A DNA stretch of 25,175 bases from IMG/VR virus record IMGVR_UViG_3300035670_001168, positions 1 through 25,175 of that record; one strand, given 5' to 3'. Source of the DNA: a virus (lineage: Duplodnaviria; Caudoviricetes). Positions 1 through 23,091 of this stretch are shown piece by piece. Positions within the stretch are counted from its first letter, which is position 1; each line of letters begins with the position of its first letter. The position numbers were made by a program, and so were the translations under genes. Under the pieces are notes generated by a model, which was given only the letters and a program-made list of their open reading frames with translations, searched no databases and was not told where the DNA came from.

Positions 1-2
1 CA

Positions 3-1205
3 AAACAAGAATTTACTGAACTAGATCAAAGAGAACTAGATTACTCAGAAGCTCTTCGAACAGCCTCTATCCTACTCGTTGGAGATGCGCCTACTCTTTC
101 TGAGATCTACGAACTCGGGGATCTTCCACCCGATCAGCAAAAATTTAAGTACGAAGAGCTTATTGATAAGAAACTGACAGATCCCAGACTCGCTGCAACT
201 TTAGTGGAATTCTTCAAATACACTTTTAAGATGAGCGGTCCGTCTACCACGATGGGAGAACCTACTCGTGATACTGCGCCCGTTTTTGCAGCTAAAGTAG
301 TTTATGAAGAGAAAGATTGGAGAAACATTCTTGTTCAAGAGTCTAATACTTGTCCTACTTTTAATTCCATAAACAACGTTTTTATCGATGGTAATTGTAA
401 TAATCTTCCTTCGGGTATGAACCATTCAGGAATTCTAACAGACCCAGGAGTACAAAGTCTTTATTACGGTAATTTATCTTTTAGACGCAATCGTTTTTTT
501 CATGAAACTTTTCTATGTAGATCAGGAAATGAACAATCGGGAGGAGAACCCACCGACCAACCGCCGTCCGATGCACCTTGTAGTGGAGAATTACCGATTC
601 CTGGTTATCAAAACAAATGGCCAGTAAGCGAAATAGCAGGAGAGTGCAATGGTGGCCGCGTAGACTTCCATGCATATAACAGCAGTAACGTATGCGCGAA
701 TTGTCATTCAACATGGAATCATAGAGCACCGTTATTTAGTCAATTTGACTCGAAGGGAATATTCCAACCCTTAACGATGGCAGGTGAATATTCCGTTTTA
801 GTCCCCGTGAACGGTTCTCCACGGGCAAAATTGAGCGATTGGCTATGTACGGCACCGTCATGTCCGAATAATGGAAATAATTTAACCGCGTGGAAAAAGA
901 CCATGCGCGTTGATGGAGTAGAGGTATCTGCTCCCGCTGCGAACCTAAAAGAACTGGGTCAACAAATGGCAAAAGACGATGAGGTCGTAGAATGCGCAAT
1001 AAAGCGAGTTTGGAATTATGCGATGGGGCGCGCCGATATTACAGAAATTGGTGGTAGATCATGGGTGTCGCTACCAGATCGTAATGATCCAAATCCTGAA
1101 TTGATTACTATGTCAAAACTAGTAAAACAATTTAAGAATGATGGATATAACCTAAAAAAAGTTCTAAAAACGATTCTACTATCTGATGACTTTACGAGGT
1201 TTTGA
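3..1205 (+). CDS. DUF1549/DUF1553(DUF1585/1588)-like CxxCH protein, 5'-partial
   Basis: The frame of ORF 204..1205 is open back to base 3 (KQEFTELDQRELDYSEALRTASILLVGDAPTLSEIY...YEELIDKKLTDPRL), resembling the DUF1549 'RxxLDLxGxxPTxxE...YxxLVDxLLxSP' pattern. CANCH motif. C-terminal KRVWNYAMGR...FKNDGYNLKKVLKTILLSDDF resembles the DUF1553/DUF1585 ending. Confidence 0.7.
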   Translation, partial: KQEFTELDQRELDYSEALRTASILLVGDAPTLSEIYELGDLPPDQQKFKYEELIDKKLTDPRLAATLVEFFKYTFKMSGPSTTMGEPTRDTAPVFAAKVVYEEKDWRNILVQESNTCPTFNSINNVFIDGNCNNLPSGMNHSGILTDPGVQSLYYGNLSFRRNRFFHETFLCRSGNEQSGGEPTDQPPSDAPCSGELPIPGYQNKWPVSEIAGECNGGRVDFHAYNSSNVCANCHSTWNHRAPLFSQFDSKGIFQPLTMAGEYSVLVPVNGSPRAKLSDWLCTAPSCPNNGNNLTAWKKTMRVDGVEVSAPAANLKELGQQMAKDDEVVECAIKRVWNYAMGRADITEIGGRSWVSLPDRNDPNPELITMSKLVKQFKNDGYNLKKVLKTILLSDDFTRF

Positions 1206-1206
1206 T

Positions 1207-2208
1207 ATGAAAAATAAATTTATTCCTGGTTTAGTATTCGTCATCTTTTATTTAATTTCTGCCTGCGGTGCGGAAGCGCCCGAAATCGGAGAAAATTTTT
1301 GTCCCGAAATACCAAACCAAGCCGGTGCTGGTGGAACATCAATGGTAACAGTTTCAGTATCAGCGACAGTCACATCTACGTCTCAATCTATAACGTCTGT
1401 AGGATCGTCTATGGGTTCCGGCGGAATGGAATTACCGAAATATGACGTACCAAATCTTGATGAAATAGCGTCGCGACTACATTCTTGTCATAAGTTTTCA
1501 TATGTTCAATTAGGAAACTTTTTAAGATCTCGTGGCGCGATTATTCCGCAAGGAAATTTAAGCGATACTAAGGCTACAACAACGCCAATTTTTGGTCAAA
1601 ACGTTACGCTAAGTAGCGTTTTTGGAGGTAGCGGTAATTCTTGCGAAATGGCTATCACAAACGCTAATGGCACTAACGACCCTGTATGTTCGCCTAATGA
1701 AACATGTTTTTGTAATCAAGACGATAAAACTAATCAAGTTAATCGTAGCTGTTTAGACGTTGGTAATAATTCGCCCGATGCAGCAGACGGTTATTGCGTA
1801 GCAAAACCAGCTACAGCAGGTTATCTATATTTTGCAGGTAAAGACGCGCTTGGCGTTCCTAGATTAGATTCACGCTTAGCAGAAAAAGAAGAACACTCGA
1901 CTGCATCTGCCATGAAATTAATGGATATATTCATTCAAGCTGCTCCTCAAATTATTGCAAATATTTCGGATCCGATTAAGGCACCTGCATGTTCTTTAAA
2001 TGGTATAAATAAACCCATGTTTGCATCCGATGGTAGTTGCGTTGAAGAATCAGTGAGTTGTTTAATTGGAACACCGGCTACTGATGATCACATATTATTG
2101 TGTAATTTATTAGTCGACAAAGCTGATAAAAGTAGTTTAACTGATGTTTCTAAGAAAAGAATCATCGTCGTCGCGACGTTACTTGCTGCAGCACATTCAT
2201 GTCAGTGA
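1207..2208 (+). CDS. Cys-rich lipoprotein
   Basis: ATG at 1207 with GAGGT upstream. MKNKF, a hydrophobic stretch, then lipobox ISA-C; Gly/Ser/Thr linker (GAGGTS...SMGSGG); many Cys. Confidence 0.75.
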   Translation: MKNKFIPGLVFVIFYLISACGAEAPEIGENFCPEIPNQAGAGGTSMVTVSVSATVTSTSQSITSVGSSMGSGGMELPKYDVPNLDEIASRLHSCHKFSYVQLGNFLRSRGAIIPQGNLSDTKATTTPIFGQNVTLSSVFGGSGNSCEMAITNANGTNDPVCSPNETCFCNQDDKTNQVNRSCLDVGNNSPDAADGYCVAKPATAGYLYFAGKDALGVPRLDSRLAEKEEHSTASAMKLMDIFIQAAPQIIANISDPIKAPACSLNGINKPMFASDGSCVEESVSCLIGTPATDDHILLCNLLVDKADKSSLTDVSKKRIIVVATLLAAAHSCQ

Positions 2209-2220
2209 AAGAAGGATAAT

Positions 2221-3822
2221 ATGGCAAATTGGAAATTAAAAGAACTTCAAAACGAGAGACGTCGTACTTTTTTGAAGATGGCAACCGTAGCGGCTACTGC
2301 GATCGGTATTGAGCGTTCTAAGTTGTTAAATTTTTTAGCAGACGAAGGTGGTAGCGGATTAGCAGAAGCGGCTGGTTCGACGTATGGTAGATCGTTGTTA
2401 GTGCCTGCGCCTAATGGTTCACAAGCATGGTTTCAAGAACTATGGCCCGTCGCGGATGTTGGTTTTAAGGCATGTCAAAATGCTAATGTGCCAGGTTTAT
2501 CCTCGCAATTTGGCGGATTTTCTTCATATCTTTATACTTCGCAATACGGGTATAATCCTGCGAATGGGTATAGAGGTACTTATACTTGGGGCAAAGGAAA
2601 CTCGATGCCGACATTACCCATGGGCGTAAAAGGTTGGTCGGGTGGAGATAAAACTTTCTTTTATGGACCTCATGCGCCATGGTTTGATCACAACCTTGGC
2701 GTACCAAAATATCCCGTGTCTGCCTTTATGTCGGGTAAAGATGAAACCCACACCGAATTTCCAATTTCTCAAGTTACCTTGTCGGGCAATGCGTCAATGC
2801 AAGCAGCGCTGGCTTCGCTAGGTGCAGCAGGTTCATCGGCTATTGTTCCTGTATTGGGTATCGATCCTGTAAAATATGGTAGAGCGCCTGGCGCTCCTGA
2901 AGTTGCTACTGTTCCTTCCTCTGCGGGTATGATCGATTTGTTTAATTCTGCAGCAAGTCAATTTGCATTAGCGACTAAGGCAGATCAGGAGTTGTTTGAA
3001 ACTTATTATAAGGCATTAATTGGTCTCAGGAAATCTTCGGAACGTTCTTCTTGGGCGCCACAGTTACAGATAACCAAAAATGCGGCTCGTATCATTGGAC
3101 TAAATTTCGCAGCACAGCTTACTCCAACCAGTCAAGATCTAAATGACTTTGGAATTCAGGAAATGATTGATAGTATCAATGCATCTTCTGTGTATATGAC
3201 AGCAGCGCAAAGAAGAGGAATAGAAGAATTTGGAAGAACGCTAATCGTCGTAGCTAAAGCATTTACGTTGGGCTTAAGTAAAACTGCCATTGTCGCTCTT
3301 TCGCCGGGTCCAACTAGCGATACAACCTTTACTGATCCACACGTGTCATTTGATGGTATGACGCAAATGAACCAAGCGCGTAACACGACTAAGCATCTTG
3401 GAAAAATTCTTGATAGTTTTTACAATTATTTATCCCAGCAAATAGATCCAGAAAGCCCGACAGAAAAACTAGATCAAAATACCGTTTTTGTGGCTTATGG
3501 TGATACGCCACATACACCCCTACAAGGTAATACGTGGCCTGATGCAACGCCCGACGCGTGCAATTGGACATATGTCATGGATCCAAAAGGGTACATCAAG
3601 AATGGGTGGTTCGGTCAAGTTTACGCGAATAAAGTCAATGGTAAAAATGCAGTGGGATTTAATCCGCTGACAGGAGCCGACGATATTACAAAAACCTCAG
3701 AACAGGTATCTGCTTTTGCCTCCACAGCTGCCGTATACGCAGTTGCAAGAGGAGATGGTAATAAAACAGCCGAATTTGGCAATTCACCAAATATTATTGC
3801 GGGTTTAATAAACTCGAAGTAA
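2221..3822 (+). CDS. Twin-arginine DUF1501-like protein
   Basis: RRRTFLK Tat-like motif; AAGGA RBS. C-terminal TDPH...NTVFVAYGDTPHTP...WPD parallels the DUF1501 'WDxH...TLVxxxGEFGRTP...DHWP' layout. Confidence 0.6.
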   Translation: MANWKLKELQNERRRTFLKMATVAATAIGIERSKLLNFLADEGGSGLAEAAGSTYGRSLLVPAPNGSQAWFQELWPVADVGFKACQNANVPGLSSQFGGFSSYLYTSQYGYNPANGYRGTYTWGKGNSMPTLPMGVKGWSGGDKTFFYGPHAPWFDHNLGVPKYPVSAFMSGKDETHTEFPISQVTLSGNASMQAALASLGAAGSSAIVPVLGIDPVKYGRAPGAPEVATVPSSAGMIDLFNSAASQFALATKADQELFETYYKALIGLRKSSERSSWAPQLQITKNAARIIGLNFAAQLTPTSQDLNDFGIQEMIDSINASSVYMTAAQRRGIEEFGRTLIVVAKAFTLGLSKTAIVALSPGPTSDTTFTDPHVSFDGMTQMNQARNTTKHLGKILDSFYNYLSQQIDPESPTEKLDQNTVFVAYGDTPHTPLQGNTWPDATPDACNWTYVMDPKGYIKNGWFGQVYANKVNGKNAVGFNPLTGADDITKTSEQVSAFASTAAVYAVARGDGNKTAEFGNSPNIIAGLINSK

Positions 3823-3851
3823 GACATAAGTAAATGCTAGAATCAGACATG

Positions 3852-3880
3852 AGGGAGGCTAGAATAAAGTCTCCTTTTTT
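3852..3880 (+). terminator. Rho-independent terminator of the three-gene operon
   Basis: GGAGGCT-agaataa-AGTCTCC hairpin followed by TTTTTT. Confidence 0.75.
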
Positions 3881-3955
3881 ATTTGTAACTTTATTATGTT
3901 TTATTAAAAGAATTTTTAAAAGTATGTTAGTGTCTCTTAATTATTATAAAATGTA

Positions 3956-4189
3956 ATGGGTCCGATCTTAAAACCAAACGACGTTGGTGCGCAACTGTTT
4001 CGAGTAAAAGGCGAACTTGAGAACATGTTAAAATCGATCAGATCGTGGCGCACCAGCGGGCTTGATGGTAGCGGAATAGTTCCGATTGAGGTATTACCTC
4101 TTGAAACTAAAATTGAAGCTTCGCTAAGAGAAGTAGAAGAAATGATTAAATTAGTTTCGCGCATAAAACCATCACGTAAAAAAAAGTAA
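3956..4189 (+). CDS. Hypothetical protein (77 aa)
   Basis: ATG-started ORF filling the gap between terminator and next gene; helical, basic C-terminus. Confidence 0.7.
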   Translation: MGPILKPNDVGAQLFRVKGELENMLKSIRSWRTSGLDGSGIVPIEVLPLETKIEASLREVEEMIKLVSRIKPSRKKK

Positions 4190-4212
4190 TACAAGAAAGA
4201 GTATATACTACT

Positions 4213-4740
4213 ATGAGAATCACAGAATCGCAACTTCGAAAAATCATTAAACAAGAAATTACTAGAAAAGTATTAAAAGAAGCAGTCGATGCTAAGTCGA
4301 TTGTAGATTTAATTACAAAAGATAAAATTAAGGATCCCAACGCCTTAAAACAAGCGCTAGAAGGTCTTGGCGACGTAGACGGAGTAAAAGATGCTTTTTC
4401 AAAAAGTGCTGACGAAATAAAACAAGCATTTACGGGAGTCGGGGGACAAGAAAAAGATTTCGACGCAATCGTCAAGGAAATAGAAACTGGCAAATCTTCC
4501 GTCGCGGGCAGCTTGAACACCGCAGTTGCTAATGCAGCGAAGGCACTAGGAATGCCAGATTTAGCTCAAGATCTTAATTCGGCAATTACGGCCTTGAAAG
4601 CGGGAAAAGATATTAATAGCATGAGTTCATCGTTGTTAAAGCCGCTAGCAAAACTCGGCGCTGAATTAATTATGGGAAATGCCGAAGCAACAAAAGCTGC
4701 GGGTATCGCTCTTGCTAAAGCAGGTGAGAAAAAGATCTGA
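4213..4740 (+). CDS. Hypothetical phage protein with an N-terminal 'ITESQLRKIIKQE' motif (possible internal head protein)
   Basis: MRITESQLRKIIKQEI...VLKEA, a motif I recognise from large phage genomes; Ala/Lys-rich helical body. Confidence 0.75.
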   Translation: MRITESQLRKIIKQEITRKVLKEAVDAKSIVDLITKDKIKDPNALKQALEGLGDVDGVKDAFSKSADEIKQAFTGVGGQEKDFDAIVKEIETGKSSVAGSLNTAVANAAKALGMPDLAQDLNSAITALKAGKDINSMSSSLLKPLAKLGAELIMGNAEATKAAGIALAKAGEKKI

Positions 4741-4753
4741 ATTAAAAAGTTTC

Positions 4754-4781
4754 TTGTACATACAATTCGCGATGTCATAAT
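4754..4781 (+). promoter_or_regulatory. Sigma70-like promoter
   Basis: TTGTAC (4754-4759), 16-nt spacer, CATAAT (4776-4781) with the extended -10 TG at 4773-4774. Confidence 0.55.
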
Positions 4782-4838
4782 GTTATCTCATAACAACGAG
4801 AGCCTAATAAAATGCTCTTGTCCATGGAGAATATCATT

Positions 4839-5114
4839 ATGAAGACACGTAAGAATCGCAAGTTTGTTTCGCAAAATCGCAACGCTGTTATCCGTACTCG
4901 TGAGGATCGTACGGGTAAGCTTCGTACTGAGACTGCTCGTCGCGACGCAACGACAATTACAGCAGCAGTTAGCACCAACCGTAAGACCGATTCTACTCGC
5001 CTGTTCATCGATTTTCCAAATCGTGGCGGCGCCGTAGAGCTTACTGGTTCAGAGGCACGTACGCTTTATCGTTTGCTTCAGAAGCACTATAGCGAGACTG
5101 GTAAGTCTTACTGA
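4839..5114 (+). CDS. Small Arg-rich basic protein (91 aa)
   Basis: GGAGA RBS at 4826-4830 favours the ATG at 4839; codons visibly biased to CGT and ACT. Confidence 0.8.
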   Translation: MKTRKNRKFVSQNRNAVIRTREDRTGKLRTETARRDATTITAAVSTNRKTDSTRLFIDFPNRGGAVELTGSEARTLYRLLQKHYSETGKSY

Positions 5115-5136
5115 TTTTTAAGTAAGTCTAGTCTTT

Positions 5137-5171
5137 GGTCGGATTCCTCCTCGGAGGAACCGACCTTTTTT
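5137..5171 (+). terminator. Rho-independent terminator
   Basis: GGTCGG-a-TTCCTCC-tc-GGAGGAA-CCGACC stem followed by TTTTTT. Confidence 0.85.
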
Positions 5172-5187
5172 AGTTAGGAGAGTCGAC

Positions 5188-5769
5188 ATGAAACTAGAAA
5201 ACGCTGAAGTTTTATTACTTTCTCAAATTCTTTTCCAAGTAAAATCTCTTCCAAACCAAAACTGGGAAGCATCAGAACAAATCAACTTACTTTATAGTAA
5301 GCTTTGTAATCATTTAGTCACTTCTCTTTCACAGCAAAGTGAAAACGAATCAGACGTCGATTTTTTAAAAACAGATTATTTACATGATGAACTTCGTGCT
5401 TGGCAGGAATCAGAGTCTGATGAACATGATTCTTGTGGTCTGGCAGAAGAACTAGATTCGTTAGATATTGACGGAGTAAATCATCTAAAACTTTCCACCG
5501 GGGTGCTAGTAGAACTTGAACCCCTTCGTGTTGACTATAAAGGTAAACGATCGATGATTTTTGAAAGCGGCATCTCTAAATCATCTCTAGATATTAACTT
5601 TGATGATGGAGACGAAATTTTGTGTGACGTAACAGCAATCGAAAGATTCGCCGATAAGCTTAAAATTTATTGCGCAGAAGGTTGTGTTTTCTTCGACGTT
5701 GCAAAATTTCCAAAGACGTGGACAAGTTTACTACAAACAAAAACCTGTTATAAGGTAATGTATACATGA
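5188..5769 (+). CDS. Hypothetical acidic protein (193 aa)
   Basis: AGGAG RBS; ATGA overlap with the next gene. Confidence 0.8.
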   Translation: MKLENAEVLLLSQILFQVKSLPNQNWEASEQINLLYSKLCNHLVTSLSQQSENESDVDFLKTDYLHDELRAWQESESDEHDSCGLAEELDSLDIDGVNHLKLSTGVLVELEPLRVDYKGKRSMIFESGISKSSLDINFDDGDEILCDVTAIERFADKLKIYCAEGCVFFDVAKFPKTWTSLLQTKTCYKVMYT

Positions 5770-6005
5770 AACTTACTTTAAGCCCTGAGCAATTTTTAGC
5801 TGTATATAATTGTGTAACCGTTAATCAAGGTTTAACCGCGCAAGAAGTTAAATCAAAAATGGATCTAGTTCTATTAGACGCTTTATCTTCGATCGACGAA
5901 GTACAGAATCAATCCAAGTTTTCTCATTGGGCAAAGCAAGAAGAAGACAAGATATCTAATCTTCAACATGAATTAAAAACCATCAGTAAGTCATCTATCA
6001 CTTGA
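5766..6005 (+). CDS. Hypothetical protein (79 aa)
   Basis: ATGA-coupled to the upstream gene. Confidence 0.75.
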   Translation: MKLTLSPEQFLAVYNCVTVNQGLTAQEVKSKMDLVLLDALSSIDEVQNQSKFSHWAKQEEDKISNLQHELKTISKSSIT

Positions 6006-6014
6006 GTATAACAT

Positions 6015-6194
6015 ATGTCGGCTTTGACAGAAGAATTATTACAACAAATTTTTGAACTAGAAGAACGCATCAAGGTTGAACAATCGACCGGAAGAAACGT
6101 TCAAACCTTGATTGATCGATTATCTCTTTTAAAAGAACAATTTCAATTAATGAACGAGAATTTGACGAAATCTGACAAAGTGCTAAAGGGATAA
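6015..6194 (+). CDS. Small coiled-coil protein (59 aa), not in the ORF track
   Basis: Translated by hand: MSALTEELLQQIFELEERIKVEQSTGRNVQTLIDRLSLLKEQFQLMNENLTKSDKVLKG*. Fills the gap between neighbours. Confidence 0.75.
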   Translation: MSALTEELLQQIFELEERIKVEQSTGRNVQTLIDRLSLLKEQFQLMNENLTKSDKVLKG

Positions 6195-6200
6195 CATGTC

Positions 6201-6419
6201 ATGCAAAAAGTAGATTTGTATCAACCAATCGTACACGATAGAAAAGGTCCGCCACCTCTTGCTATTAGAGTAGGAGTTAATACGACAGGTGATTATATCG
6301 AAGGCGGTTCAGCGACAGGATACCTAAAACCAGAAACTTATATTTTACTTTCAGCATTGCCAGTCGAGCTACAAGAAAGAGTTAAAACAGCGGTACAAGC
6401 TATTATTTCTGGAATGTAG
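6201..6419 (+). CDS. Hypothetical protein (72 aa)
   Basis: AAGGGA upstream; collinear with neighbours. Confidence 0.75.
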   Translation: MQKVDLYQPIVHDRKGPPPLAIRVGVNTTGDYIEGGSATGYLKPETYILLSALPVELQERVKTAVQAIISGM

Positions 6420-6429
6420 TATTTAATAT

Positions 6430-6588
6430 ATGAAACAAGCCATGACTGGGTACGTTCCCTTCGGAGCGCGCCGAACAATGACACAAACCGAAGAAGAAAT
6501 TGCAGAAGAAGATATCGATAATGAAAAAAAAGAATCTTTAAGAAAGATGATAAGATTATTAGTCATCGAATCTTTAAAAGATTATTAA
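6430..6588 (+). CDS. Small acidic protein (52 aa), not in the ORF track
   Basis: Translated by hand: MKQAMTGYVPFGARRTMTQTEEEIAEEDIDNEKKESLRKMIRLLVIESLKDY*. Confidence 0.6.
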   Translation: MKQAMTGYVPFGARRTMTQTEEEIAEEDIDNEKKESLRKMIRLLVIESLKDY

Positions 6589-6593
6589 TTTTT

Positions 6594-6625
6594 ACTTAAA
6601 TTTTAAGTCGACGTCAATATTGACG
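6594..6625. repeat. Two adjacent palindromes upstream of the neck gene
   Basis: ACTTAAA-T-TTTAAGT (6594-6608) and perfect 14-bp CGTCAATATTGACG (6612-6625). Confidence 0.7.
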
Positions 6626-6645
6626 CTTGCTTATTATTTAAGGAT

Positions 6646-7827
6646 ATGCCTTTATTTTCTGACACCATTAGCCCGACGCCTTTTGGATTTTTTGATAGTG
6701 ACACTGCGTTTCAAGCAGAAGCTGACGGAATGATTACATTCGTTAAGCGCAAGCTTGGCGACGACGTGTTGTCTGTAGAATTAACTCGAAAAGAGATATG
6801 GGCGTGCTTTGAAGAAGCGTGTTGTGAATATTCAAGGTTAATTCATGAAACAAAAATTACGTCTGAGCTAACGAACGTATTAGGCGTAAACACTGGTTCT
6901 GCAGACTTTACCAACAAATATTCAAGACAAACGCTAGAATATTTGTTGCGCATGGCAGAACCTTATGCAACAGAAGCATATGTTGGTGGTTCATATGACG
7001 CAACGATGTGCTATGTAGATCTAATCAGCGGTCAACAAGATTATGACATTTATTCAGACGTAAAGGTATTGTCGGGCAGCAATGCTGGGGAAGTTTTCTT
7101 CGATACGCTGAGTGGTTCAAAAGGTAAATTAAAAATAGTCGAAATTTTTCATTTTGAGCCATTGGCAGCGCAAACGTTTCTTCTTAACGCATCTAATATC
7201 ACAAACTTCTTAGCGACTAATTTTAATTATGAATCGTACGTAAACTCTACAATATTCTACGTACTTCCTATATTTGAAGACGTCTTAAGAAGAGGAATGC
7301 TAGAAAGCGCCTTTAGAGTAAGACGCTCCAATTATAGTTATGAATTATTGGGTAGCAAGTTAAGAATTTACCCGATTCCAACCAGCGATTTGCAGTTGGG
7401 TAAAATGTATATCAAGCTTATGCCACCCCATGATCCGTATAAACCTCTGTACACCGATAACTCGATATACGGAATATCAGGTCCAAATAATTTTCCACTA
7501 GGTAATTTACCATTTGCTACGATAAATCAACCAGGTAGACAATGGATTCGTCAATACACGCTAGCGTTGTGTAAGGAACTGTTGGGTTTAATCAGATCTA
7601 AATTCCAAAACATACCAATTCCTAACGCAGACCTTCAATTAAACGGCGAAGCTTTAATCTCGCAAGGAAGAGAAGATAAAGATAAGTTAATAAACCAAAT
7701 GAAAGAATTTTTATTAAATATGACTAAGTCTAAGTTGTTAGAAAATGATGCTCTAGCAGCAGAAAACTTAAATAAACAACTTAGGTTTATACCAATGCCT
7801 CTTGGAAAGAGTATTCAAATTGGATAA
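6646..7827 (+). CDS. Neck (head completion) protein, T4 gp13-like
   Basis: N-terminal KRKLGDDVLSVELT and C-terminal WIRQYTLALCKELLG..RSKF..IPIP....LNGEALISQG match the gp13 family pattern. Confidence 0.8.
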   Translation: MPLFSDTISPTPFGFFDSDTAFQAEADGMITFVKRKLGDDVLSVELTRKEIWACFEEACCEYSRLIHETKITSELTNVLGVNTGSADFTNKYSRQTLEYLLRMAEPYATEAYVGGSYDATMCYVDLISGQQDYDIYSDVKVLSGSNAGEVFFDTLSGSKGKLKIVEIFHFEPLAAQTFLLNASNITNFLATNFNYESYVNSTIFYVLPIFEDVLRRGMLESAFRVRRSNYSYELLGSKLRIYPIPTSDLQLGKMYIKLMPPHDPYKPLYTDNSIYGISGPNNFPLGNLPFATINQPGRQWIRQYTLALCKELLGLIRSKFQNIPIPNADLQLNGEALISQGREDKDKLINQMKEFLLNMTKSKLLENDALAAENLNKQLRFIPMPLGKSIQIG

Positions 7828-7944
7828 GTCGAAATTTTGAAAGATTTTATGAAACCGAATATTGAACAATTACTCTCGATAAATTGTAATGTGACGTATT
7901 CGAAATCCTTATAGAATATCGTCGCGTAGAATCATATTTAGGTC

Positions 7945-9336
7945 ATGGCGCGCTTATTCATGAGTCCGAGAGAACTAAATTTCATATCGGATATTACAAA
8001 AGAAATTATTAAAGACGTCGTCGGACAAAAAATAATTTATTATCCTATTTCTGAAATTAAAACTAAGACTCATGAAGTTTATAATGAAGCGTTAAAAAAG
8101 ATTTTTGATAATCCAATAATAATAGATGCGCTAGTAGACAACAGCTTTCAAACAGACACCAAAATAGATAAGTTCGGTATCGATGCTCAATATAAAATAG
8201 AAGTTTATATTCAGCACAGAGACCTAGTAGAAAAAGGAATTAATGTCACAATTGGAGACTTCTTTTCTTTTTCTGATATTTTTTATGAGATCACTGAGCG
8301 TACCTTTATGCGCAACATATACGGTATGGCAGAGCATAAAGATGGAATTAGATTAGTTGGTACAAAATCTCGACTTGGTTTGTTCGAGGCGCCGATCGTT
8401 GGACCCACCGATATTTCATATACGAATCCAGATGCGGTACAAGATGTGTTTGTTCAACAACGCGGACTAAAGTATATCAATAAAACAGGCGAAATAACTG
8501 GCGATGTACGAGATTTAGTTAGAGAAGGAGTTCTAGACGGTCCACTAACTGGGCAAAAAGAAGTTTCTGAACTCGGGGATCCGATTGGCGTTGGTCACGC
8601 ATTTTATGACGACGACGATATTCGTACACCGTCAACTTATACCGTACCTTCTATTTTGCTAGCAATAACGACTCAAACGTCAGGCGGGATAGTAGGAGAA
8701 ACAAATTTACTTAGAGAATTTGGAAATGTTGGATCAACTATAACGGGTACGATAACTCGAAACTACGATAAAGCAGCAATATCTAGTTATACTGTCGAAT
8801 ATCGCCCGAATGGTACAAGCACTTGGACGGCAGTACCAGGTTTATCTAACGTAGCTGTTTCAGGTAATCCTGAAACAGTAACAATTACCTCTACTATTCA
8901 CAACGATCCGACCCTATCGACTGCGACGACGATATATTATCGAGTGAGAGTAGTCGATAGCTATGAAACAACTATGTCAAGTACAACTTCTGTAGCATTT
9001 AATAGAGTTATATTTTTTGGACCATCTGCAGCGGCCCCGACGACTTCGAATGCAGTCAGAGCTTTACCAGATAGGATATTTATAAACGGAGATAATCCGT
9101 TTATTTTGAATACGGGTTCGACTAATGTAATATTTACAGTTGCTATGCCCGCGCCACTAACAATCGACGAAGTAAATGATTTGGACGCATATGGATTTGA
9201 TATTACTAGCGCATATATTTCATCAACATTTAGCGTCGCAGATAGTGCTGGAACATTATCGTCTTATAACGTGTACACAATGACAATTGGAGCAGCTTAT
9301 ACTTCGAACCATCGCCACGAAGTAACGAGGACTTGA
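7945..9336 (+). CDS. Neck/head-closure protein, gp14-like, with a long C-terminal beta-rich extension
   Basis: Follows gp13. GQKIIYYP...VYNEA..K.F..P...KFGID...GDFF...FYEI pattern in the first ~150 aa; Thr/Ser-rich FN3-like C-half (YYRVRVVD). Confidence 0.65.
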   Translation: MARLFMSPRELNFISDITKEIIKDVVGQKIIYYPISEIKTKTHEVYNEALKKIFDNPIIIDALVDNSFQTDTKIDKFGIDAQYKIEVYIQHRDLVEKGINVTIGDFFSFSDIFYEITERTFMRNIYGMAEHKDGIRLVGTKSRLGLFEAPIVGPTDISYTNPDAVQDVFVQQRGLKYINKTGEITGDVRDLVREGVLDGPLTGQKEVSELGDPIGVGHAFYDDDDIRTPSTYTVPSILLAITTQTSGGIVGETNLLREFGNVGSTITGTITRNYDKAAISSYTVEYRPNGTSTWTAVPGLSNVAVSGNPETVTITSTIHNDPTLSTATTIYYRVRVVDSYETTMSSTTSVAFNRVIFFGPSAAAPTTSNAVRALPDRIFINGDNPFILNTGSTNVIFTVAMPAPLTIDEVNDLDAYGFDITSAYISSTFSVADSAGTLSSYNVYTMTIGAAYTSNHRHEVTRT

Positions 9337-9338
9337 AC

Positions 9339-12300
9339 ATGGCACTAACACCAGGTCTTGAAGTCCCGTTTGGCATACAACCCGTTAATCCGATACCCGT
9401 AGATTCTTGGTCTGGCCCGTATTCTGGTCCTGTCGGAGATGATACAATTGCGGGCGCTATTGCAGTTGCAAACGCTACTATTCCTCAAGCAGTTAGATTT
9501 CAATCGATGGAAGTTAGATTGATCATTGGGGGAGAAGCTTACAAATATTGGTATAAAAATGGCATTGCGGACAGCGACTTAGTTTTATTTTCGGGTGGAG
9601 GTGGTGGTGCCGACGCTAATGCGCCATATCTTGTGCTTTCATCTACTGGTTCTTTATCTGCTGAAAGAGTTTTTGCAGTAGGCACAGGTTTAAAGGCAGT
9701 TGATGATGGAGCGGGTGGAAATTATACTATTTCAATAAACAATTCAGCTATCGCAACACTTAGCGGTTCAACTTTTACTGGTGCTGTTAATTTTAATCAA
9801 GGGCTAAGCGGTTCATTAACTCAACTAACAGATGGCACTTCGTATTTGATCGCAGGAGAAAATATTGCGATCGTTACAAGTTCTAATGGATCGATTACAA
9901 TTTCAGGTTTAGCAGGTGACATCACCTCAGTTACAGCAGGAACTGGTCTGTCTGGTGGTGGTATGATAGGCGACATTACGTTAAATGTCGATGATTCTAT
10001 CGTTGCTACGGTATCTGGTTCGACCTTTAAAGGGTCCGTGAGCTTCGATGAAGGTCTTAGCGGTTCACTAACAAGACTAGTAGATGGAACTTCATATATC
10101 GTAGCCGGCGTAGGGATCTCGATCTCTTCGGCTTCGAATGGTCCTATAACAATTTCGTCAGAAAACGCTGGTTCAATTACGGTTTCTTCAGGCTCTAATT
10201 CAGTATCATCTACCTCCAATCTCCAATTTGGGCCTGGGTTTATATTAAATCAGGAATCTACTGGCATCGCCGTAGTGTCAGGAACTATCGGAGAGCCTGA
10301 AGATGGTACGTATGCAGACGGCATTTATACCGACTTTACATCGAACACGCTAATCGGAACGGCTATCGATAGATTCAATGAATTATTTTTAGCGTTAGCA
10401 CCAAGTCCAGCACCAAGCCTAGACAACGTTGACTGTGATACGTCGGCAGGAACAACCGCGTATTTATCGTTTGGTATAAGCAACGATCAATCGAGCGCTT
10501 CGCCGGCGTATATTTCCAGCAATACGACAGCGGGATTTTCTGCCGTAGACGTTAATGACTCGTATAGTTCATCTACGTCAGGAGATAACATAAGAAAAGG
10601 AATTTATACAGGCACCTCAAATATATCTGGCGATTTAAACGAAGACGTACCTGCCTACGTTCATAACACTGGCGTGACAAATTACGTCGCAAATTCCTTT
10701 GGAGAAGCCAACCAAGGCACTTTAAAACTATATGCAAATGGTGCTTTATTGCATAGCGTAAATTTAACGACTAGCTCAGCAGGATCTGGTGTCCCAGGAT
10801 CTGGTACAAAATCTCATTTAAATGCGAATGGATCGGGTTTTACGAATCTATCGCAGACTGGCAGCGCAGTGCAATCGAACGGTCTTTCCTTTCCACCATT
10901 CCAGCACAGAACAGGAAAGTACTTAGTTCACGCTGCTGACCAAAGAAATGGGTGGAATTATCTTCAAGTTATACACGATAAGGGTTCCACACAAACTCAA
11001 ACAAATTACGTAGAGTGGATAAATGACAATAACGCTGACGCATTAGTTGCAAGCAATAATTCTTTGTCTTTTGAAGGTTCTGGTTCAATCCATCTTTCGG
11101 GTGTTGAATATTTCCAAAGCGGTACTTTAACCTATAAAGTCAAAGTCGACAACGCATATAAGTACGTTTATGATAATACAGCGATTAGTTTTACGACATC
11201 GAACTCTTCTGCTGCTAGCTCAGGATTAAGCTTTAGTTTTGCGAACCAGACAAAACCTACTATCAACACGAGTGCAGGAGAAACGCACGCTAAAGCTCTA
11301 CATTTAACGTCTTCAGCTACACTCACTGCGAACTATTTAATTAATGGTTCAATTACTGCGGGTGTCAACGTTACACATCCTCTTAAATCTAATTTAACGA
11401 ATAGTGGTCAGTCAACGACATCGCAAATACTAACGTACAATTATTCGAATACATCAACCGAATTAGCCGAAACCTTCCGTCGTGAAAATTATAGAATAAT
11501 ATCAGGATCATACGATACGCAAGCCGACGTCGTTAATGTCTCGAATGTTTGGAATTCAGAAATTTACATGACTTCTTCAAATGGAGGCCACTCGGACGGA
11601 CTTCAATTTTATAATACAACGTTAGTATCTCCAAAAAACGCTGTGAATGGAGGTAACTTCTCCGTATTCTCAGGAGGTCCTAATGAAAATCCAAATTATT
11701 CTGGTATAATAGGCACAAGAACATTTTATAGATGGTTTAAAAACACATCTGGAGCTCAATACGATCTGTCTTTGGCGATGAATGGATCATCGACTATAGT
11801 CTCTAATGCGACAGCGTTCAACGCGTCAAGAATCAAGTGTTTTATTAAAATACCTGGTAAAACAGGGTGGATGGACGTGGCGTTACCTTTTGTATTAGAT
11901 AACGTGCAAGAAGGCGCCGGGGCTTATGTTTCTAATGCTTTATTAAGCTTTGATAGTACCTTAAACGCTACAAACTATTTAAACTTTGGAAATGTTTCAG
12001 TAGACAATAATGAGTATGTCGTTTTAAAGATACTAGCAGATTCTTCCTGGACAGGTAACGTATCTTCTATCACTGTAGACTTTGGCGCGGGTACTGGAAC
12101 TTTAACGCCAGTCCCTGATTTAGACAATATAGATTCTGACAACGCAGGGACGACGGCAAGACTTTCTTTCGGTTCATCGAAATCTATAACAGGATACACG
12201 AATTCTTCGACAGACGCAGGATTCTCTGCGGCGGATCTTAATGCAGTATATCAAGTTGCAACATCAGGTGCAAATCTTCGAAGAGCAGTATTCGCCGGCG

Positions 12301-13874
12301 CGACAACCATGGAAGGTGATTTGAATGAAGATGTGACGTCACCAGGTCAGGACTACGTCGCAAACGCATTTTCAGATGCCAACAGTGGAAGCATTAGTCT
12401 CGAAGTAAATGGAAGCGTAATACACACTGTTGAATTAACAGGATCTTATAACCTCGTAGGCGTTGGATCGCCAGGCGCAGGAACAGGTACAAGTTTAAAT
12501 GCAAATGGTTCAGGTTTCATTGCATTAAGCACATGGGGTCCAGGTTTGTTCGACAATGGTGTCCCAAGATATTCAGAAATACAGAGAACTGCCAAGTACA
12601 GAGTCGTACCCGCCAATCAAAGAACTGGTTGGAATTATTTGCGAGTATATCACACAGTAAACGGTGTTGACAGAACAACCAATTATGTCGAGTGGGTTAA
12701 TGATCCCGATTCAAATGCTCTTTCTTCTGCTGGTAACGGACTGTCAATATTTGGTGATGATTCATTCTCATACATGAGCGGAGTTAAGTTCTTTAATTCC
12801 CCATCAGGAAGCATAAGAACTAGAATATCGAACATTTATAAGAACGTTTATTCCAATAGCTCAACTGCTATTTCTTTCACCAATCTAACAAATGCGACCG
12901 CCGCGCAAATTATCCAGTCGGGTTCCGGATTATCTTTGACGAAAACTACGAACGCTACAACAGACAGCCTTCAAACCTTGAATGCAAACGTAGATAGCCA
13001 AAATGAATTGCTACATGTTAGCGGAACTATAAACTTTACGCGAACAAAATCTTTACCAGGAACATACACGACTGCATACAGCTGCGGTGGAGCGATGGTG
13101 TTCGTTCATCCTCTAAAGTCAAATCTTACTTTATCGACGCAACTAACGACGAATCTTTTAACATGGACACCTGTAAACACGAGCAATGCTAATACAGATG
13201 AATACTTTACGAGTGAAACTTACAGACTCACAAGTGGATCTTATACTGCTCAATCAGATATAACAGGTGGTACAAAAACTTGGGATTCTACCATAAGCAT
13301 GGACGATCAAGTTGGAAACCCAACCTACGCTACAGGATTACTGGTGTATGACACTTATCTATTAGCACCTAAAGATGGTGGAGTTGATGGAGATTTCAGG
13401 AATCATATTGAAGGTGGATCAATAGAGTCTCCTGCTGAAAACGTTAACTATAGTTCATTAACAAATTCCACAAGAAATTATTTTAGAGGATTTTTAAACA
13501 ACACTGTAAATGACAGACCCAGCGTTCAAGTTACATTATTCGGAGACGCAACAATTGTTGGAAAAACAGGGCCTAATGCGGCGGCATTAGGGACGAATAA
13601 AAACATATTCGTAGAAGTCGGGGTGCCAGGAAAAACCGGATTATTAGATTTAGGTAAGCCTTCAGCGGGAGCAGGAAATATAATCGAAGGAGATGGTTGT
13701 TTAAGCGGTGACTTAAATGCGACGGTCGACATCGATGGTGTAACCAATACATGCACATTCAATGGTGTAACAGCAGATGGTACGACCTCGGGCGCTGAAT
13801 ACATTATAGTCAAAATTTCAGCATCTAAAAATTGGACTGGTTATTTAGATAGAGTGAGCATAACCTGGAGTTAA
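9339..13874 (+). CDS. Large virion structural/fibre-like protein with an internal tandem duplication
   Basis: About 1511 aa from the ATG at 9339; Ser/Gly/Thr/Asn-rich; GLSGSLT-DGTSY modules; two homologous ~570-aa units. Confidence 0.75.
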   Translation: MALTPGLEVPFGIQPVNPIPVDSWSGPYSGPVGDDTIAGAIAVANATIPQAVRFQSMEVRLIIGGEAYKYWYKNGIADSDLVLFSGGGGGADANAPYLVLSSTGSLSAERVFAVGTGLKAVDDGAGGNYTISINNSAIATLSGSTFTGAVNFNQGLSGSLTQLTDGTSYLIAGENIAIVTSSNGSITISGLAGDITSVTAGTGLSGGGMIGDITLNVDDSIVATVSGSTFKGSVSFDEGLSGSLTRLVDGTSYIVAGVGISISSASNGPITISSENAGSITVSSGSNSVSSTSNLQFGPGFILNQESTGIAVVSGTIGEPEDGTYADGIYTDFTSNTLIGTAIDRFNELFLALAPSPAPSLDNVDCDTSAGTTAYLSFGISNDQSSASPAYISSNTTAGFSAVDVNDSYSSSTSGDNIRKGIYTGTSNISGDLNEDVPAYVHNTGVTNYVANSFGEANQGTLKLYANGALLHSVNLTTSSAGSGVPGSGTKSHLNANGSGFTNLSQTGSAVQSNGLSFPPFQHRTGKYLVHAADQRNGWNYLQVIHDKGSTQTQTNYVEWINDNNADALVASNNSLSFEGSGSIHLSGVEYFQSGTLTYKVKVDNAYKYVYDNTAISFTTSNSSAASSGLSFSFANQTKPTINTSAGETHAKALHLTSSATLTANYLINGSITAGVNVTHPLKSNLTNSGQSTTSQILTYNYSNTSTELAETFRRENYRIISGSYDTQADVVNVSNVWNSEIYMTSSNGGHSDGLQFYNTTLVSPKNAVNGGNFSVFSGGPNENPNYSGIIGTRTFYRWFKNTSGAQYDLSLAMNGSSTIVSNATAFNASRIKCFIKIPGKTGWMDVALPFVLDNVQEGAGAYVSNALLSFDSTLNATNYLNFGNVSVDNNEYVVLKILADSSWTGNVSSITVDFGAGTGTLTPVPDLDNIDSDNAGTTARLSFGSSKSITGYTNSSTDAGFSAADLNAVYQVATSGANLRRAVFAGATTMEGDLNEDVTSPGQDYVANAFSDANSGSISLEVNGSVIHTVELTGSYNLVGVGSPGAGTGTSLNANGSGFIALSTWGPGLFDNGVPRYSEIQRTAKYRVVPANQRTGWNYLRVYHTVNGVDRTTNYVEWVNDPDSNALSSAGNGLSIFGDDSFSYMSGVKFFNSPSGSIRTRISNIYKNVYSNSSTAISFTNLTNATAAQIIQSGSGLSLTKTTNATTDSLQTLNANVDSQNELLHVSGTINFTRTKSLPGTYTTAYSCGGAMVFVHPLKSNLTLSTQLTTNLLTWTPVNTSNANTDEYFTSETYRLTSGSYTAQSDITGGTKTWDSTISMDDQVGNPTYATGLLVYDTYLLAPKDGGVDGDFRNHIEGGSIESPAENVNYSSLTNSTRNYFRGFLNNTVNDRPSVQVTLFGDATIVGKTGPNAAALGTNKNIFVEVGVPGKTGLLDLGKPSAGAGNIIEGDGCLSGDLNATVDIDGVTNTCTFNGVTADGTTSGAEYIIVKISASKNWTGYLDRVSITWS

Positions 13875-13875
13875 A

Positions 13876-16284
13876 ATGGCCGGTAAAACAGATACGAGCG
13901 CCACACTTTTTGCGCAGAAAAAACTTCTCGGTAAGGCCCACACCTCAAATTTAAAAATTGATGGTGAAGAGGTAATCGGTTCGAATATTCAGACATCGAC
14001 TGATTTAATTTTTGGTGAACCAATACCAAATTCTCCCATTCAGACGCTATATCTTATTCAGAGCGCCTCTGCTTCGGACAACGGCACAGTAGAGTACATA
14101 CAATTCGTCTTAACTGCCTTAACAGGTACCACATATGACGCCAACGTCTCGGGTGGTGGTTCAGGTACAGACGCAGGAGAAAGTTCGCAAGTTTCTGGTC
14201 CTCATGCTTATAAGTTTATACTTCCTTCTAACTATCAATCAATTTCAACCAATCCAAGAGCGGGTAATGGAGTTTTTGACAATAATAAACTAGTTCATGA
14301 AACCTTAGGACGATTGCAACTAGTTCCTCCGTTTTATTCTCAAACAGCGCCAAATCCTTATATCGTAAAAATATACAAGGACAATGGAGCTGGTGGCGTG
14401 GGAGACGAAATACCGCTATTAGACAATATCGACTGGAACGTAGATTATTACAATGGTATTTTATTTCTACAGGATTATAGTGCTACAAAAATTCCCGCCT
14501 ACGCAAGAGCCTTCGCGTACGTCGGAAAGACAGTAGATGAAGTCATATCATCAATATCTAATGGTTCTGCAGACACAAATGCCGAGTATCTATTGCTTTC
14601 AACGACGGGATCGTTAGGGTCTGCACGTTCGTTAACAGTAGGAACAGGATTAATAACACTCGATGGTGGAGCTGGTTCGAACTATACTATATCCATCAAC
14701 GACTCGACCGTCGCAACCACGAGTGGTTCAACTTTTACGGGGGCTGTTAATTTTAACTTAGGTCTCAGCGGTTCGTTGACAAAACTTACAGATGGAACAT
14801 CATATCTCGTTGCAGGAACGGGAGTTAATGTAATATCGTCTTCTAATGGATCAATAACCATTTCTGCGACCGGAGCGTCGACAGTCGCAGGAGCGAATCA
14901 GCAAATTCAATTCAACGATAATGGCGCATTTGGTTCTGATGGTGGTTTAATTTATAACGCAACAAACAAAAACTTGCTTTTATCTGGCGCTTTGTTGATC
15001 GGAACAAGTTCGTTGTTAGGGACTGAAAAACTAAGAATTGGGGGCGATTCTAGTTTTTATGGTAACATCGACGTATCTGGTAGTTTAACTGCAACATTGG
15101 GACTTAGCGGTTCATTAACAAAATTAATTGATGGATCATCTTATCTAATCGCTGGCTCAGGAATATCAATAACGTCTAGTTCTAACGGTTCAATAACCAT
15201 CACCAATGATGGTACCGTCGGAGATATCACGGCGGTTAATGCAGGCATTGGACTTATTGGTGGAGGAACAAGCGGAAATATTACACTCGATATAAACGAC
15301 TCTGTCGTAGCAACGATTAGCGGATCAACATTTACTGGGCCTGTTATTTTTAATCAAGGATTAAGCGGGTCTTTAACTAGATTGATCGATGGAACCTCGT
15401 ATATCATCGCGGGAAATAATGTAACTATAATTTCTTCATCGAATGGTTCGATCGTTATTTCGTCCGCAGATGGTCAGTCTTACGCAAAAGGATATATCTC
15501 TGGCTCGGCACAAGATGGATTCGGCAATATTGATATTTCTTCGATAGGGACATTGATCAACAACTACAATGAAACGACAGACATCGACGTTTTTAGAAAT
15601 GGTCAAATTCTTACAGCTGGTTCTGATTTTGACTATACAGTTCCAACGAATAATACTATAAACTTGAATACGGCATTACAACCAGACGATATCATAACCG
15701 TGCGTATTTTAGTGTCTGGATCGTCGAATAATGGTGGTGGTGGAGGCGGTGGCGGTTCAGGAGATATAACGGCCGTCATAGCTGGAACTGGTTTACTAGG
15801 CGGCGCTACGTCTGGAAATGCGACATTAACTATTGATGATTCTGTCGTCGCGACGACATCAGGTTCAAAATTCGTAGGACCCGTAACATCTTCGATAGGT
15901 TCTCTATTGGGGGGATATTCAGAATTTAGTGGCAGCGTTTCAGAGTCAATCGTAAACAACAATGGTAGCACAGGTATCATCGTTTTCGACACTACACAGG
16001 CTTCTATATTTTACGTTAATAATCCGACAGGAAACGTTACTGCCAATTTTACGAATGTTCCCACGAAGGACATGAGAATTATTTCAACGACCGTCATTCT
16101 ATCTCAAAGTTCTACAGCACGTATAGTAAGTGCAGTTCAAATAGATGGCGTTGCTTCTGCGATTAATTGGGCGAATAATGTTATTCCTTCGGGCAACGCT
16201 AACAAACAAGACATCTTTGGATTTAGCCTAATAAGATCTGGCAGCGTCTGGAAGACATTGGGACAATTGTCGACGTTCGGATGA
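13876..16284 (+). CDS. Tail-fibre-like structural protein (802 aa)
   Basis: Three GLSGSLT-DG(T/S)SY modules, GDIT(A/S)V-AG-GL repeats, poly-Gly linker, beta-rich C-terminal domain. Confidence 0.7.
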   Translation: MAGKTDTSATLFAQKKLLGKAHTSNLKIDGEEVIGSNIQTSTDLIFGEPIPNSPIQTLYLIQSASASDNGTVEYIQFVLTALTGTTYDANVSGGGSGTDAGESSQVSGPHAYKFILPSNYQSISTNPRAGNGVFDNNKLVHETLGRLQLVPPFYSQTAPNPYIVKIYKDNGAGGVGDEIPLLDNIDWNVDYYNGILFLQDYSATKIPAYARAFAYVGKTVDEVISSISNGSADTNAEYLLLSTTGSLGSARSLTVGTGLITLDGGAGSNYTISINDSTVATTSGSTFTGAVNFNLGLSGSLTKLTDGTSYLVAGTGVNVISSSNGSITISATGASTVAGANQQIQFNDNGAFGSDGGLIYNATNKNLLLSGALLIGTSSLLGTEKLRIGGDSSFYGNIDVSGSLTATLGLSGSLTKLIDGSSYLIAGSGISITSSSNGSITITNDGTVGDITAVNAGIGLIGGGTSGNITLDINDSVVATISGSTFTGPVIFNQGLSGSLTRLIDGTSYIIAGNNVTIISSSNGSIVISSADGQSYAKGYISGSAQDGFGNIDISSIGTLINNYNETTDIDVFRNGQILTAGSDFDYTVPTNNTINLNTALQPDDIITVRILVSGSSNNGGGGGGGGSGDITAVIAGTGLLGGATSGNATLTIDDSVVATTSGSKFVGPVTSSIGSLLGGYSEFSGSVSESIVNNNGSTGIIVFDTTQASIFYVNNPTGNVTANFTNVPTKDMRIISTTVILSQSSTARIVSAVQIDGVASAINWANNVIPSGNANKQDIFGFSLIRSGSVWKTLGQLSTFG

Positions 16285-16290
16285 TAAATT

Positions 16291-17016: not shown

Positions 17017-17035
17017 ATTAATTCAAAATTTTTAA

Positions 17036-17560: not shown

Positions 17561-17586
17561 GACCAATTAATAATAACTCGTCGTAC

Positions 17587-17623
17587 AAAAAAATAAATGG
17601 CTCAAGAATTAACTTGAGCCATT
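17587..17623 (-). terminator. Rho-independent terminator after the minus-strand fibre gene
   Basis: AATGGCTCAAG-6 nt-CTTGAGCCATT 11-bp stem, followed on the minus strand by TATTTTTTT. Confidence 0.85.
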
Positions 17624-17646
17624 CAAATTACTAATTTTTTAATTTA

Positions 17647-19287: not shown

Positions 19288-19356
19288 GCTTATTTCCTAA
19301 AATTTGTATCAATACGATGATTAAATATTAGTCGATGCCAATTTTGTATTTAAATG

Positions 19357-20691: not shown

Positions 20692-20697
20692 AAACCC

Positions 20698-20706
20698 ATT
20701 CTATCA
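20698..20706 (-). promoter_or_regulatory. Extended -10 element (TGaTAGAAT) for the ligase, probably leaderless
   Basis: TAGAAT ends 6 nt before the ATG at 20691; no SD sequence in between. Confidence 0.5.
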
Positions 20707-20723
20707 TTTTTAAAGAAAACAGT

Positions 20724-21188: not shown

Positions 21189-21215
21189 TTTTACCTCATT
21201 ATATATATCTTAAAG

Positions 21216-22485: not shown

Positions 22486-22486
22486 C

Positions 22487-22810: not shown

Positions 22811-22837
22811 GTTGTTTTTCCTTTTATTAACTTAGTA

Positions 22838-23056: not shown

Positions 23057-23091
23057 ATTTTTATCTTATCTCTTTATAAACTGACATTGCA

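Follow-up and report, generated by a model that had tools for sequence, protein, structure and literature searches.

A host-derived cassette of predicted exported proteins between the capsid and neck genes of large uncultured T4-like phages

The viral record IMGVR_UViG_3300035670_001168, a linear IMG/VR fragment of 25,175 nt with an estimated completeness of 10% (the whole stretch is called the window here), opens with three same-strand open reading frames (ORFs) that occupy positions 3-3822, separated by gaps of 1 and 12 nt. We found that these three genes almost certainly form a real, host-derived cassette for exported proteins that is maintained by the phage. The cassette is a variant of the PSCyt/PSD-DUF1501-type module and a host-derived phage gene set, with a chemistry for which we can offer candidates. 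A preliminary description, made from the letters of this DNA alone, had noticed three close-packed genes with a CANCH motif, a lipobox and the motif RRRTFLK; all of these were borne out, and the motifs are conserved far above chance. The cassette site lies between a gp23-type capsid gene and a neck gene. The window starts inside gene 1 and lacks its first 90 codons, which are supplied by contig L001 (identical to window positions 1-4949), where the full protein has 490 aa and an HNH gene, a gp23-type major capsid gene and a prohead protease gene lie upstream of gene 1. With its capsid protein (PF07068, E 9e-78), prohead protease (PF03420), neck protein (phrog_211) and T4-like gene order, the carrier is a large uncultured T4-like phage. 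The features of the region, all on the + strand, are as follows.

3..1205, +: gene 1, last 400 of 490 codons, PSCyt/PSD-type predicted lipoprotein; 5' end open, full length at L001:7513-8985
693..707, +: CANCH, putative haem-c attachment site (C321, C324 and H325 of the full protein), from the sequence and 92/92 homologues
1207..2208, +: gene 2, predicted 333-aa Cys/His-rich lipoprotein without CxxCH; start taken from the homologue alignment
1264-1266, +: Cys codon of the gene-2 lipobox LISAC, from the sequence; Cys in 90/93 homologues
2221..3822, +: gene 3, predicted 533-aa substrate of the twin-arginine translocation (Tat) pathway with a predicted alkaline-phosphatase/sulfatase-superfamily fold; unnamed family near DUF1501
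2257..2277, +: twin-arginine motif RRRTFLK of gene 3, from the sequence; R14, R15 and F17 conserved
2743..2751, +: E175-T176-H177 of gene 3; H177 placed by motif order at or near the superfamily nucleophile position
3334..3342, +: D372-P-H374 of gene 3, metal ligands predicted from conservation; aligns with DUF1501 GWDTH
3499..3543, +: G427-D428-T429 ... W439-P-D441 of gene 3, predicted second metal/anion site; aligns with the DUF1501 GEFGRTP...RDH region
3851..3877, +: weak terminator-like hairpin 3' of gene 3 (L001 11631-11657)
4839..5114, +: conserved small phage gene, downstream landmark of the cassette site, outside the cassette
6646..7827, +: neck/head-tail adaptor gene, phage context outside the cassette (phrog_211, E 2.3e-9)

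That the cassette is phage-borne, as first proposed, is upheld by contigs of other runs that bridge the junction at even depth and by the same gene order in divergent phages. A single contig from metagenome run X1 spans window positions 1-12000, a 6.5-kb contig from run X2 spans 3592-10115 (depth 33 vs 29-31 on the cassette), and contigs from run X3 cover 3457-4910 and 4924-8415. X1 and X2 are possible source samples, and all four runs compared come from one study. The three runs that match the window best are labelled subsurface metagenomes, the freshwater runs X5-X7 contain a small share of it, and no RNA run is among those listed as containing it. The comparative evidence for phage linkage is stronger than that of these contigs. 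Gene 3 was recovered on 26 IMG/VR contigs by a single-protein search and on 40 by a profile search, 37 of them at 80-100% identity (type A) and three at 36% (type B). Within the DNA retrieved, 38 of these 40 viral loci, which are contigs including near-duplicates rather than independent lineages, have the capsid gene on their upstream side or a phage landmark on their downstream side, and the full trio is present in all 27 with more than 2.7 kb of upstream sequence. An assembly chimera or host-prophage junction would have nothing to recommend it except that the genes look bacterial; it is refuted by the bridging contigs of X1, X2 and X3 (X2 at even depth), by the shared order in many divergent phages and by the low GC content at third codon positions (GC3), and we regard it as next to impossible.

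The cassette is an accessory element of its phage group. Among 80 loci retrieved by the capsid protein alone, 30 span the distance from the capsid gene to the landmark at 4839; rearrangement or insufficient length kept the other 50 out of the count. Of the 30, twelve carry type A, one type B and 17 neither, giving 13 of 30 informative loci with a cassette. L042 and L058 are clean empty sites, with both flanks kept and the trio absent. In 14 partial phage genomes lacking the cassette at this site (completeness 9-84%; the largest 278 kb, at 84%), no match was found elsewhere. The capsid tree is poorly resolved, with 10 of its 29 inner branches open. Three pairs of loci (L005/L006, L019/L020 and L078/L087) have near-identical cassette genes beside diverged capsid or neck genes, which suggests phage-phage recombination across the cassette region.

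Further support for a host-derived cassette comes from its nearest relatives, and here the myxobacterial donor considered in the preliminary description is supported by both tree and genome search. A single-protein search of genome collections returned only five loci (three metagenome-assembled genomes titled Polyangiaceae or Deltaproteobacteria; 68-76% identity), all in chromosomal surroundings with 63-67% GC, and the gene-3 profile was positive in 29/201 genomes of the host-like order (one, G144, unpublished) and 105/301 of the family. The three nearest bacterial genomes hold three to four cassette copies each, representing both types, with two to three type-A paralogues. In a quick tree of 55 proteins, which carries long-branch warnings near the root, a clade of 15 phage type-A rows (SH-aLRT 99) falls within the Polyangiaceae type-A rows, and the two phage type-B rows pair with another bacterial copy (97). 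A single phage clade for both types was rejected (p-AU 3e-66). By these comparisons, phages acquired the cassette twice, separately, as types A and B, and an origin in Polyangiaceae myxobacteria is supported. Genes 1, 2 and 3 of the window have GC3 values of 0.31, 0.26 and 0.33, vs 0.77-0.87 in three bacterial copies, in keeping with the long residence that had been read from the AT-rich coding. After exclusion of pairs in which dS was saturated or close to zero, three pairs could be used for every gene of the trio; their dN/dS of 0.033-0.080 indicates that the phage copies are under purifying selection. No CRISPR-spacer-like match to window positions 4000-23900 was found in 301 host-family genomes, where the six weak matches all fell in the sigma-factor gene, and the phage capsid protein was not found in five host-like genomes.

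Gene 1 is a PSCyt/PSD-type protein by an over-cut-off PSD domain, a conserved CxxCH and a predicted export signal. It matches PF07624 (DUF1585) with E 1.6e-7 and 31.4 bits against a cut-off of 25.8, the match being partial (profile positions 6-37 of 74); PF07583 and PF07627 score below cut-off in the window copy, and the CxxCH region weakly resembles PF07627. Among its 92 homologues, matches at E<=0.01 were found to DUF1549 (80, these PF07583 matches being weak), DUF1585 (69), DUF1588 (13) and DUF1800 (7), so the assignment to a DUF1585/1549-type family stands. Full-length L001 gene 1 has its own lipobox, with Cys25 kept in 91/92 homologues, and the CxxCH (C321/C324/H325) is invariant in all 92. 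Haem-c attachment, and with it the assignment of gene 1 as a c-type cytochrome, is putative and drawn from this motif. The AlphaFold2 (AF2) model of its product, gp1, has a predicted local distance difference test (pLDDT) score of 83 and is confident past residue 100; it found no Foldseek match in the PDB at E<=0.001, and its best VIA-align match (Z 5.3) covers a three-helix part.

Gene 2 matched no Pfam family in a Pfam scan, though 120 homologues were found; its nearest clusters in the Atlas, which compares language-model features, are viral and myxobacterial hypotheticals (low recognition score). Invariant Cys and His residues, including six Cys and two HxC motifs, are kept in both types A and B. 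The gene is likely a haem-less remote paralogue of gene 1, since hhalign aligns the two at 87% (E 3.8e-6), though across a short stretch of 35 columns.

Gene 3 had been described as a Tat-exported, DUF1501/DUF1552-like protein that might have an alkaline-phosphatase-like fold; the Tat motif and the predicted fold stand, and the Pfam family assignment does not. R14, R15 and F17 are kept in 101/103 homologues, and matches to the Pfam TAT_signal model occur among the relatives. The 50-residue Tat signal region (2221-2376) is itself unusually conserved, with a charged break ERSK followed by a second helix, and may bind a partner or chaperone. Neither PF07394 (DUF1501) nor PF07586 (DUF1552/HXXSHH) matches gene 3 at E<=0.1, the HXXSHH motif is lacking, and 0/63 relatives scanned match either family (E<=0.01). 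On the other hand, the Atlas places gene 3 at 0.96 to DUF1501 clusters, and 26 of its 30 named-cluster matches carry DUF1501, in a minority of members. The DUF1501 motifs compared (FGR..., DxH and G[ED]xxxxP, plus the Tat signal) align with gene 3 in order, with hhalign probabilities of 0.5% against three canonical sequences and 78% against eight divergent ones. Gene 3 is thus DUF1501-like by language-model features and motif order only, and lies outside the Pfam family. NCBIfam, PHROGs and PADLOC returned nothing for any of the three cassette genes, and the gene-3 profile, run against PDB sequences, found a single match that we judged to be chance.

The core alpha/beta fold of the gene-3 product, gp3, is predicted to be that of the alkaline phosphatase superfamily. 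Its AF2 model (pLDDT 85) aligned best in VIA-align at Z 11.6 (root-mean-square deviation 4.3 over 259 residues), with matches to sulfatases, PafA-type phosphatases and NPPs; 45 chains reached Z>=8, and the best 50 rows all belong to this superfamily by title. Foldseek returned nothing at E<=0.001 in the PDB or in BFVD. Its weak top BFVD match, A0A6J5M742 (E 0.064), comes from an uncultured tailed phage and is annotated as DUF1501; it may reflect a further capture of a related module by a phage, and other phages may thus carry distant kin of gp3. The gene-3 family comprises 330 representatives at 50% clustering. H177 is present in 103/103 close and 79/87 distant homologues, beside variable positions T176 and T178, and among the 87 distant homologues D372 is kept in 82, H374 in 83, D428 in 85, W439 in 85 and D441 in 80; N448 is also fixed, and position 431 is Lys or His. 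W70 and W463 are conserved as well. We infer from these fixed polar residues a metal and anion site with a His at the usual nucleophile place, H177 being placed by motif order and conservation rather than by superposition on a solved member.

The signals around the genes suggest separate control. Shine-Dalgarno (SD) sites had been reported for all three genes; such sites precede gene 2 (GAGG, 1196-1199) and gene 3 (AAGGA, 2212-2216), and none was found for gene 1 in 17 phage variants. In 14 of the 17, a -10 box of the form TAnnnT lies 5-9 nt upstream of the start of gene 1 (mean 4.9 and maximum 11 in 1000 shuffles), as TATTAT at 6 nt in this phage, and the same rule found none at the neck (0/12), capsid (0/46) and gene-3 (0/11) starts. 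The lack of an SD site together with a -10 box so close to the start points to a sigma70-type promoter that would yield a leaderless transcript, apart from the virion genes. By eye, a promoter resembling TTGTAC-N17-TAnnnT (window 4756-4790) also stands ahead of the small gene at 4839 in many relatives. The terminator ascribed to the cassette exists as a hairpin at 3851-3877, but is weak: it is one of nine sites of this kind, where shuffles give 4.7 +/- 2.1, and its conservation in relatives is not visible by eye.

We examined 29 bacterial loci, with gene 1 in view in 25. An upstream cytochrome-c lipoprotein gene is present in 20 of the 25 (weak cytochrome c matches; two CxxCH in 12/19 ORFs), and of the five that lack this di-haem gene, four are type A and one is the sister of phage type B. 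It is absent from every phage locus examined. The module had been called complete; the three-gene cassette is intact, but since most bacterial copies add the fourth, di-haem cytochrome gene, it is not the complete bacterial form. A GH35 beta-galactosidase gene beside three type-A host copies was considered and set aside as shared synteny rather than a functional clue. Other bacterial copies (L152, L154, L164 and L165) lie near genes for an FHA-like protein, a type II/IV secretion ATPase and a TPR lipoprotein.

Given these results, we tentatively favour, at somewhat less than even confidence, a reading in which the products form a lipid-anchored periplasmic haem-c-coupled metalloenzyme that, while the phage infects, would sustain the degradation of anionic nutrients bearing phosphate or sulfate. 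Judged by its sequence, the leaderless sigma70-type promoter would drive transcription from gene 1, probably before the late genes. Host Sec/lipoprotein and cytochrome-c maturation pathways are predicted to export and anchor gp1, with haem c on its CxxCH, and the gene-2 product gp2, and host Tat to export folded, metal-loaded gp3. The catalytic subunit would be gp3, its phosphatase-type scaffold bearing a His/Asp metal site, with gp1 as a mono-haem electron carrier and gp2 as a scaffold; the phage copy may add dose as host transcription falls, topping up a host function. An anchored periplasmic complex is favoured because TatC and cytochrome-c assembly genes are present in 3/3 nearest host genomes and were not found in two partial phage genomes. 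The redox link is drawn from the cytochrome-c lipoprotein gene directly upstream in most bacterial loci, and a Tat enzyme with c-type cytochromes is the usual layout of a periplasmic oxidoreductase. The proposed gp3 active site fits the predicted fold and the conserved H177, D372, H374, D428, D441 and N448. According to PMC5615132, PSCyt genes adjoin sulfatases and are fused to carbohydrate-binding modules, which we count in favour. Membrane-targeted electron transfer has been proposed for PSCyt modules in PMC3542564. Among the three functions first offered, nutrient capture fits best, and superinfection exclusion and envelope remodelling gained no direct support. A bolder version, which we consider possible but doubtful, makes the trio a minimal self-sufficient periplasmic redox enzyme of an undescribed class, with a His/metal centre in a phosphatase fold and a new haem-c fold. 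That both captures took a form without the host di-haem partner and then gained the leaderless promoter, as this version would have it, seems equally doubtful.

Several observations weigh against the periplasmic metalloenzyme. No haem-protein fold was matched, so the gp1 CxxCH could be a disulfide or metal site, and the absence of the di-haem gene from the phage copies and their nearest bacterial kin leaves gp1 without an evident electron acceptor. The gp3 fold match is middling at Z 11.6 and spans hydrolases and transferases alike. Any benefit of the cassette must be conditional, because it is absent at the site in 17/30 related loci and was not found in the 14 partial genomes. The TAnnnT rule was fixed after the upstream sequences had been seen, and 52/298 ORFs of one relative also pass it. 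One low-dS pair gives a gene-3 dN/dS of 0.21, and the host is assigned to Polyangiaceae from cassette ancestry alone.

The most direct competitor would make gp3 a plain periplasmic phosphatase, phosphodiesterase or sulfatase that scavenges P or S, with gp1 and gp2 as non-redox anchors or binders and a structural CxxCH. The best 50 fold matches of gp3, all superfamily hydrolases, mutases or transferases, speak for this, as do the lack of a matched cytochrome fold for gp1 and of a di-haem gene in the phage. However, gp3 has a conserved His and no conserved Ser/Thr/Cys nucleophile, the CxxCH is invariant and a c-type cytochrome gene accompanies most bacterial copies, and we consider a plain hydrolase unlikely. 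The cassette might instead remodel the host surface, for instance by phospho-group transfer on lipopolysaccharide (LPS) or glycans, blocking superinfection or protecting the infected cell. EptA/MCR-1, LtaS, BcsG and YejM share the gp3 fold (Z 7.9-9.8), an accessory, envelope-targeted cassette with an early-type promoter would suit such a role, and the nearest hosts carry two to three type-A paralogues. Yet gp3, unlike those transferases, has no membrane domain for a lipid donor and is strongly conserved rather than diversifying; 0/3 proteins match the known anti-phage/exclusion models of PADLOC, and no recurrent LPS genes stand beside the bacterial copies examined. Taken together, this makes surface remodelling distinctly unlikely.

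By analogy with MauG and MbnH, which act as maturation oxidases on partner proteins, gp1, with a host di-haem protein, might build a protein-derived cofactor in gp3. A putative haem partner does occur together with a Tat protein, invariant W439 lies beside the acidic site, and W70 and W463 are candidate residues by their conservation; with no MauG-type Pfam or fold match and a single CxxCH in gp1, we think this improbable. The position between capsid and neck genes could also point to virion components or late lysis helpers. The export signals, close bacterial orthologues in chromosomal context, the clean empty sites of L042 and L058, a terminator-like site after the capsid gene and a promoter type unlike that of the virion genes all argue otherwise, and a virion or lysis role appears very improbable.

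If the bolder version is right, the trio would be the first Tat-plus-cytochrome enzyme complex known to be encoded by a phage, and it would offer a compact system in which to test PSCyt/PSD-DUF1501 modules. These are common in Planctomycetota, Verrucomicrobiota and Myxococcota, and their chemistry is not known (PMC3542564, PMC5615132). Two captures at one locus under strong purifying selection imply that the three-gene form is useful to a lytic phage. The cassette is also a small, low-GC, clonable unit for biochemistry, and it suggests that a clade of large, uncultured T4-like phages infects Polyangiaceae.

Other features of these phages lie apart from the cassette. Window positions 19357-24820 encode an ATP-dependent DNA ligase, a sigma70-like factor, a CMP-type deaminase, a lysozyme with a peptidoglycan-binding domain and an SGNH/GDSL esterase. 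A helix resembling MKITESQLRKIIREE opens many unrelated phage ORFs (window 4213-4740; L025, L096, L099, L202, L206-L208), including 6/298 ORFs of the related phage genome G016 by a strict pattern, and may be a targeting or packaging signal. G016 also carries a PrkA/YeaG, SpoVR/YcgB and DUF444/YeaH trio (L207:1-4217), and encodes isocitrate lyase (L204:2170-3420), a pyridoxal-phosphate (PLP) enzyme that is presumably cysteine-synthase-like (L208:1493-2368), a chaperonin (L207:7790-9403), an actin-like protein (Volactin model; L202:16248-17249) and a transglycosylase (L205:11282-12919). At L204:16245-18560 it encodes a predicted lipoprotein of 772 aa that matches no Pfam family and has a start of the leaderless type.

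Among 50,697 GenBank phage records, none matches gene 1 or gene 3, and the best capsid matches are <60% identical; three bacterial DUF1501-type queries also gave no GenBank phage match. Searches of full-text literature, with subscription papers mostly outside their scope, turned up no account of such an operon in phages. The main text of a myxophage survey (bioRxiv 10.64898/2026.09.14.751636) does not mention DUF, cytochrome or lipoprotein, though its supplements may list such genes, and PMC13573597 contains no cassette-related terms. The available portions of PMC12981691 and PMC6653060 hold nothing relevant to the cassette, and a DUF1501 mention in the available portion of the phage paper PMC5418858 was rejected as a weak match of an unrelated 61-aa ORF.

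Among known systems, the cassette most resembles two kinds of bacterial module, the function of which is given as unknown in the accessible text of PMC3542564 and PMC5615132. As in the PSCyt1/PSCyt2/PSD1 (DUF1549/DUF1553) plus DUF1501 modules of the Planctomycetes-Verrucomicrobia-Chlamydiae (PVC) group, as far as the available part of PMC3542564 describes them, a CxxCH exported protein stands beside a Tat-signal protein; the weak PF07583 matches of the gene-1 homologues and the DUF1501 motif order and Atlas features of gene 3 point the same way. In contrast to those modules, gene 3 fails PF07394 and has DPH / GDT-x-(H/K) / WxD vs WDTH / EFGR / RDH, the cassette is phage-carried and has an extra haem-less lipoprotein, and both partners of gp3 are predicted to be lipid-anchored. 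The PSCyt3/PSD2-5 (DUF1588, DUF1585, DUF1592) plus DUF1552 modules, as given in the available text of PMC5615132, share with it a gene 1 over the PF07624 cut-off and a gene-3 N-terminus similar to that of DUF1552 proteins (hhalign 72% over 50 columns). This similarity does not extend past the signal and first strand, and 0/63 gene-3 relatives match the HXXSHH family. The alkaline phosphatase superfamily (sulfatases, PafA/SPAP, NPP, EptA/MCR-1, LtaS) shares the predicted gp3 core fold with Asp and His at strand ends, but gp3 differs in its 6-13% identity, its want of a conserved Ser/Thr/Cys nucleophile and its haem-motif lipoprotein partners. Cyanophage phoA and pstS are phage auxiliary nutrient genes, and like them the cassette is host-derived, exported, accessory and under purifying selection; unlike them, it would be a multi-subunit system that needs the Tat, lipoprotein and cytochrome-c maturation pathways of its host.

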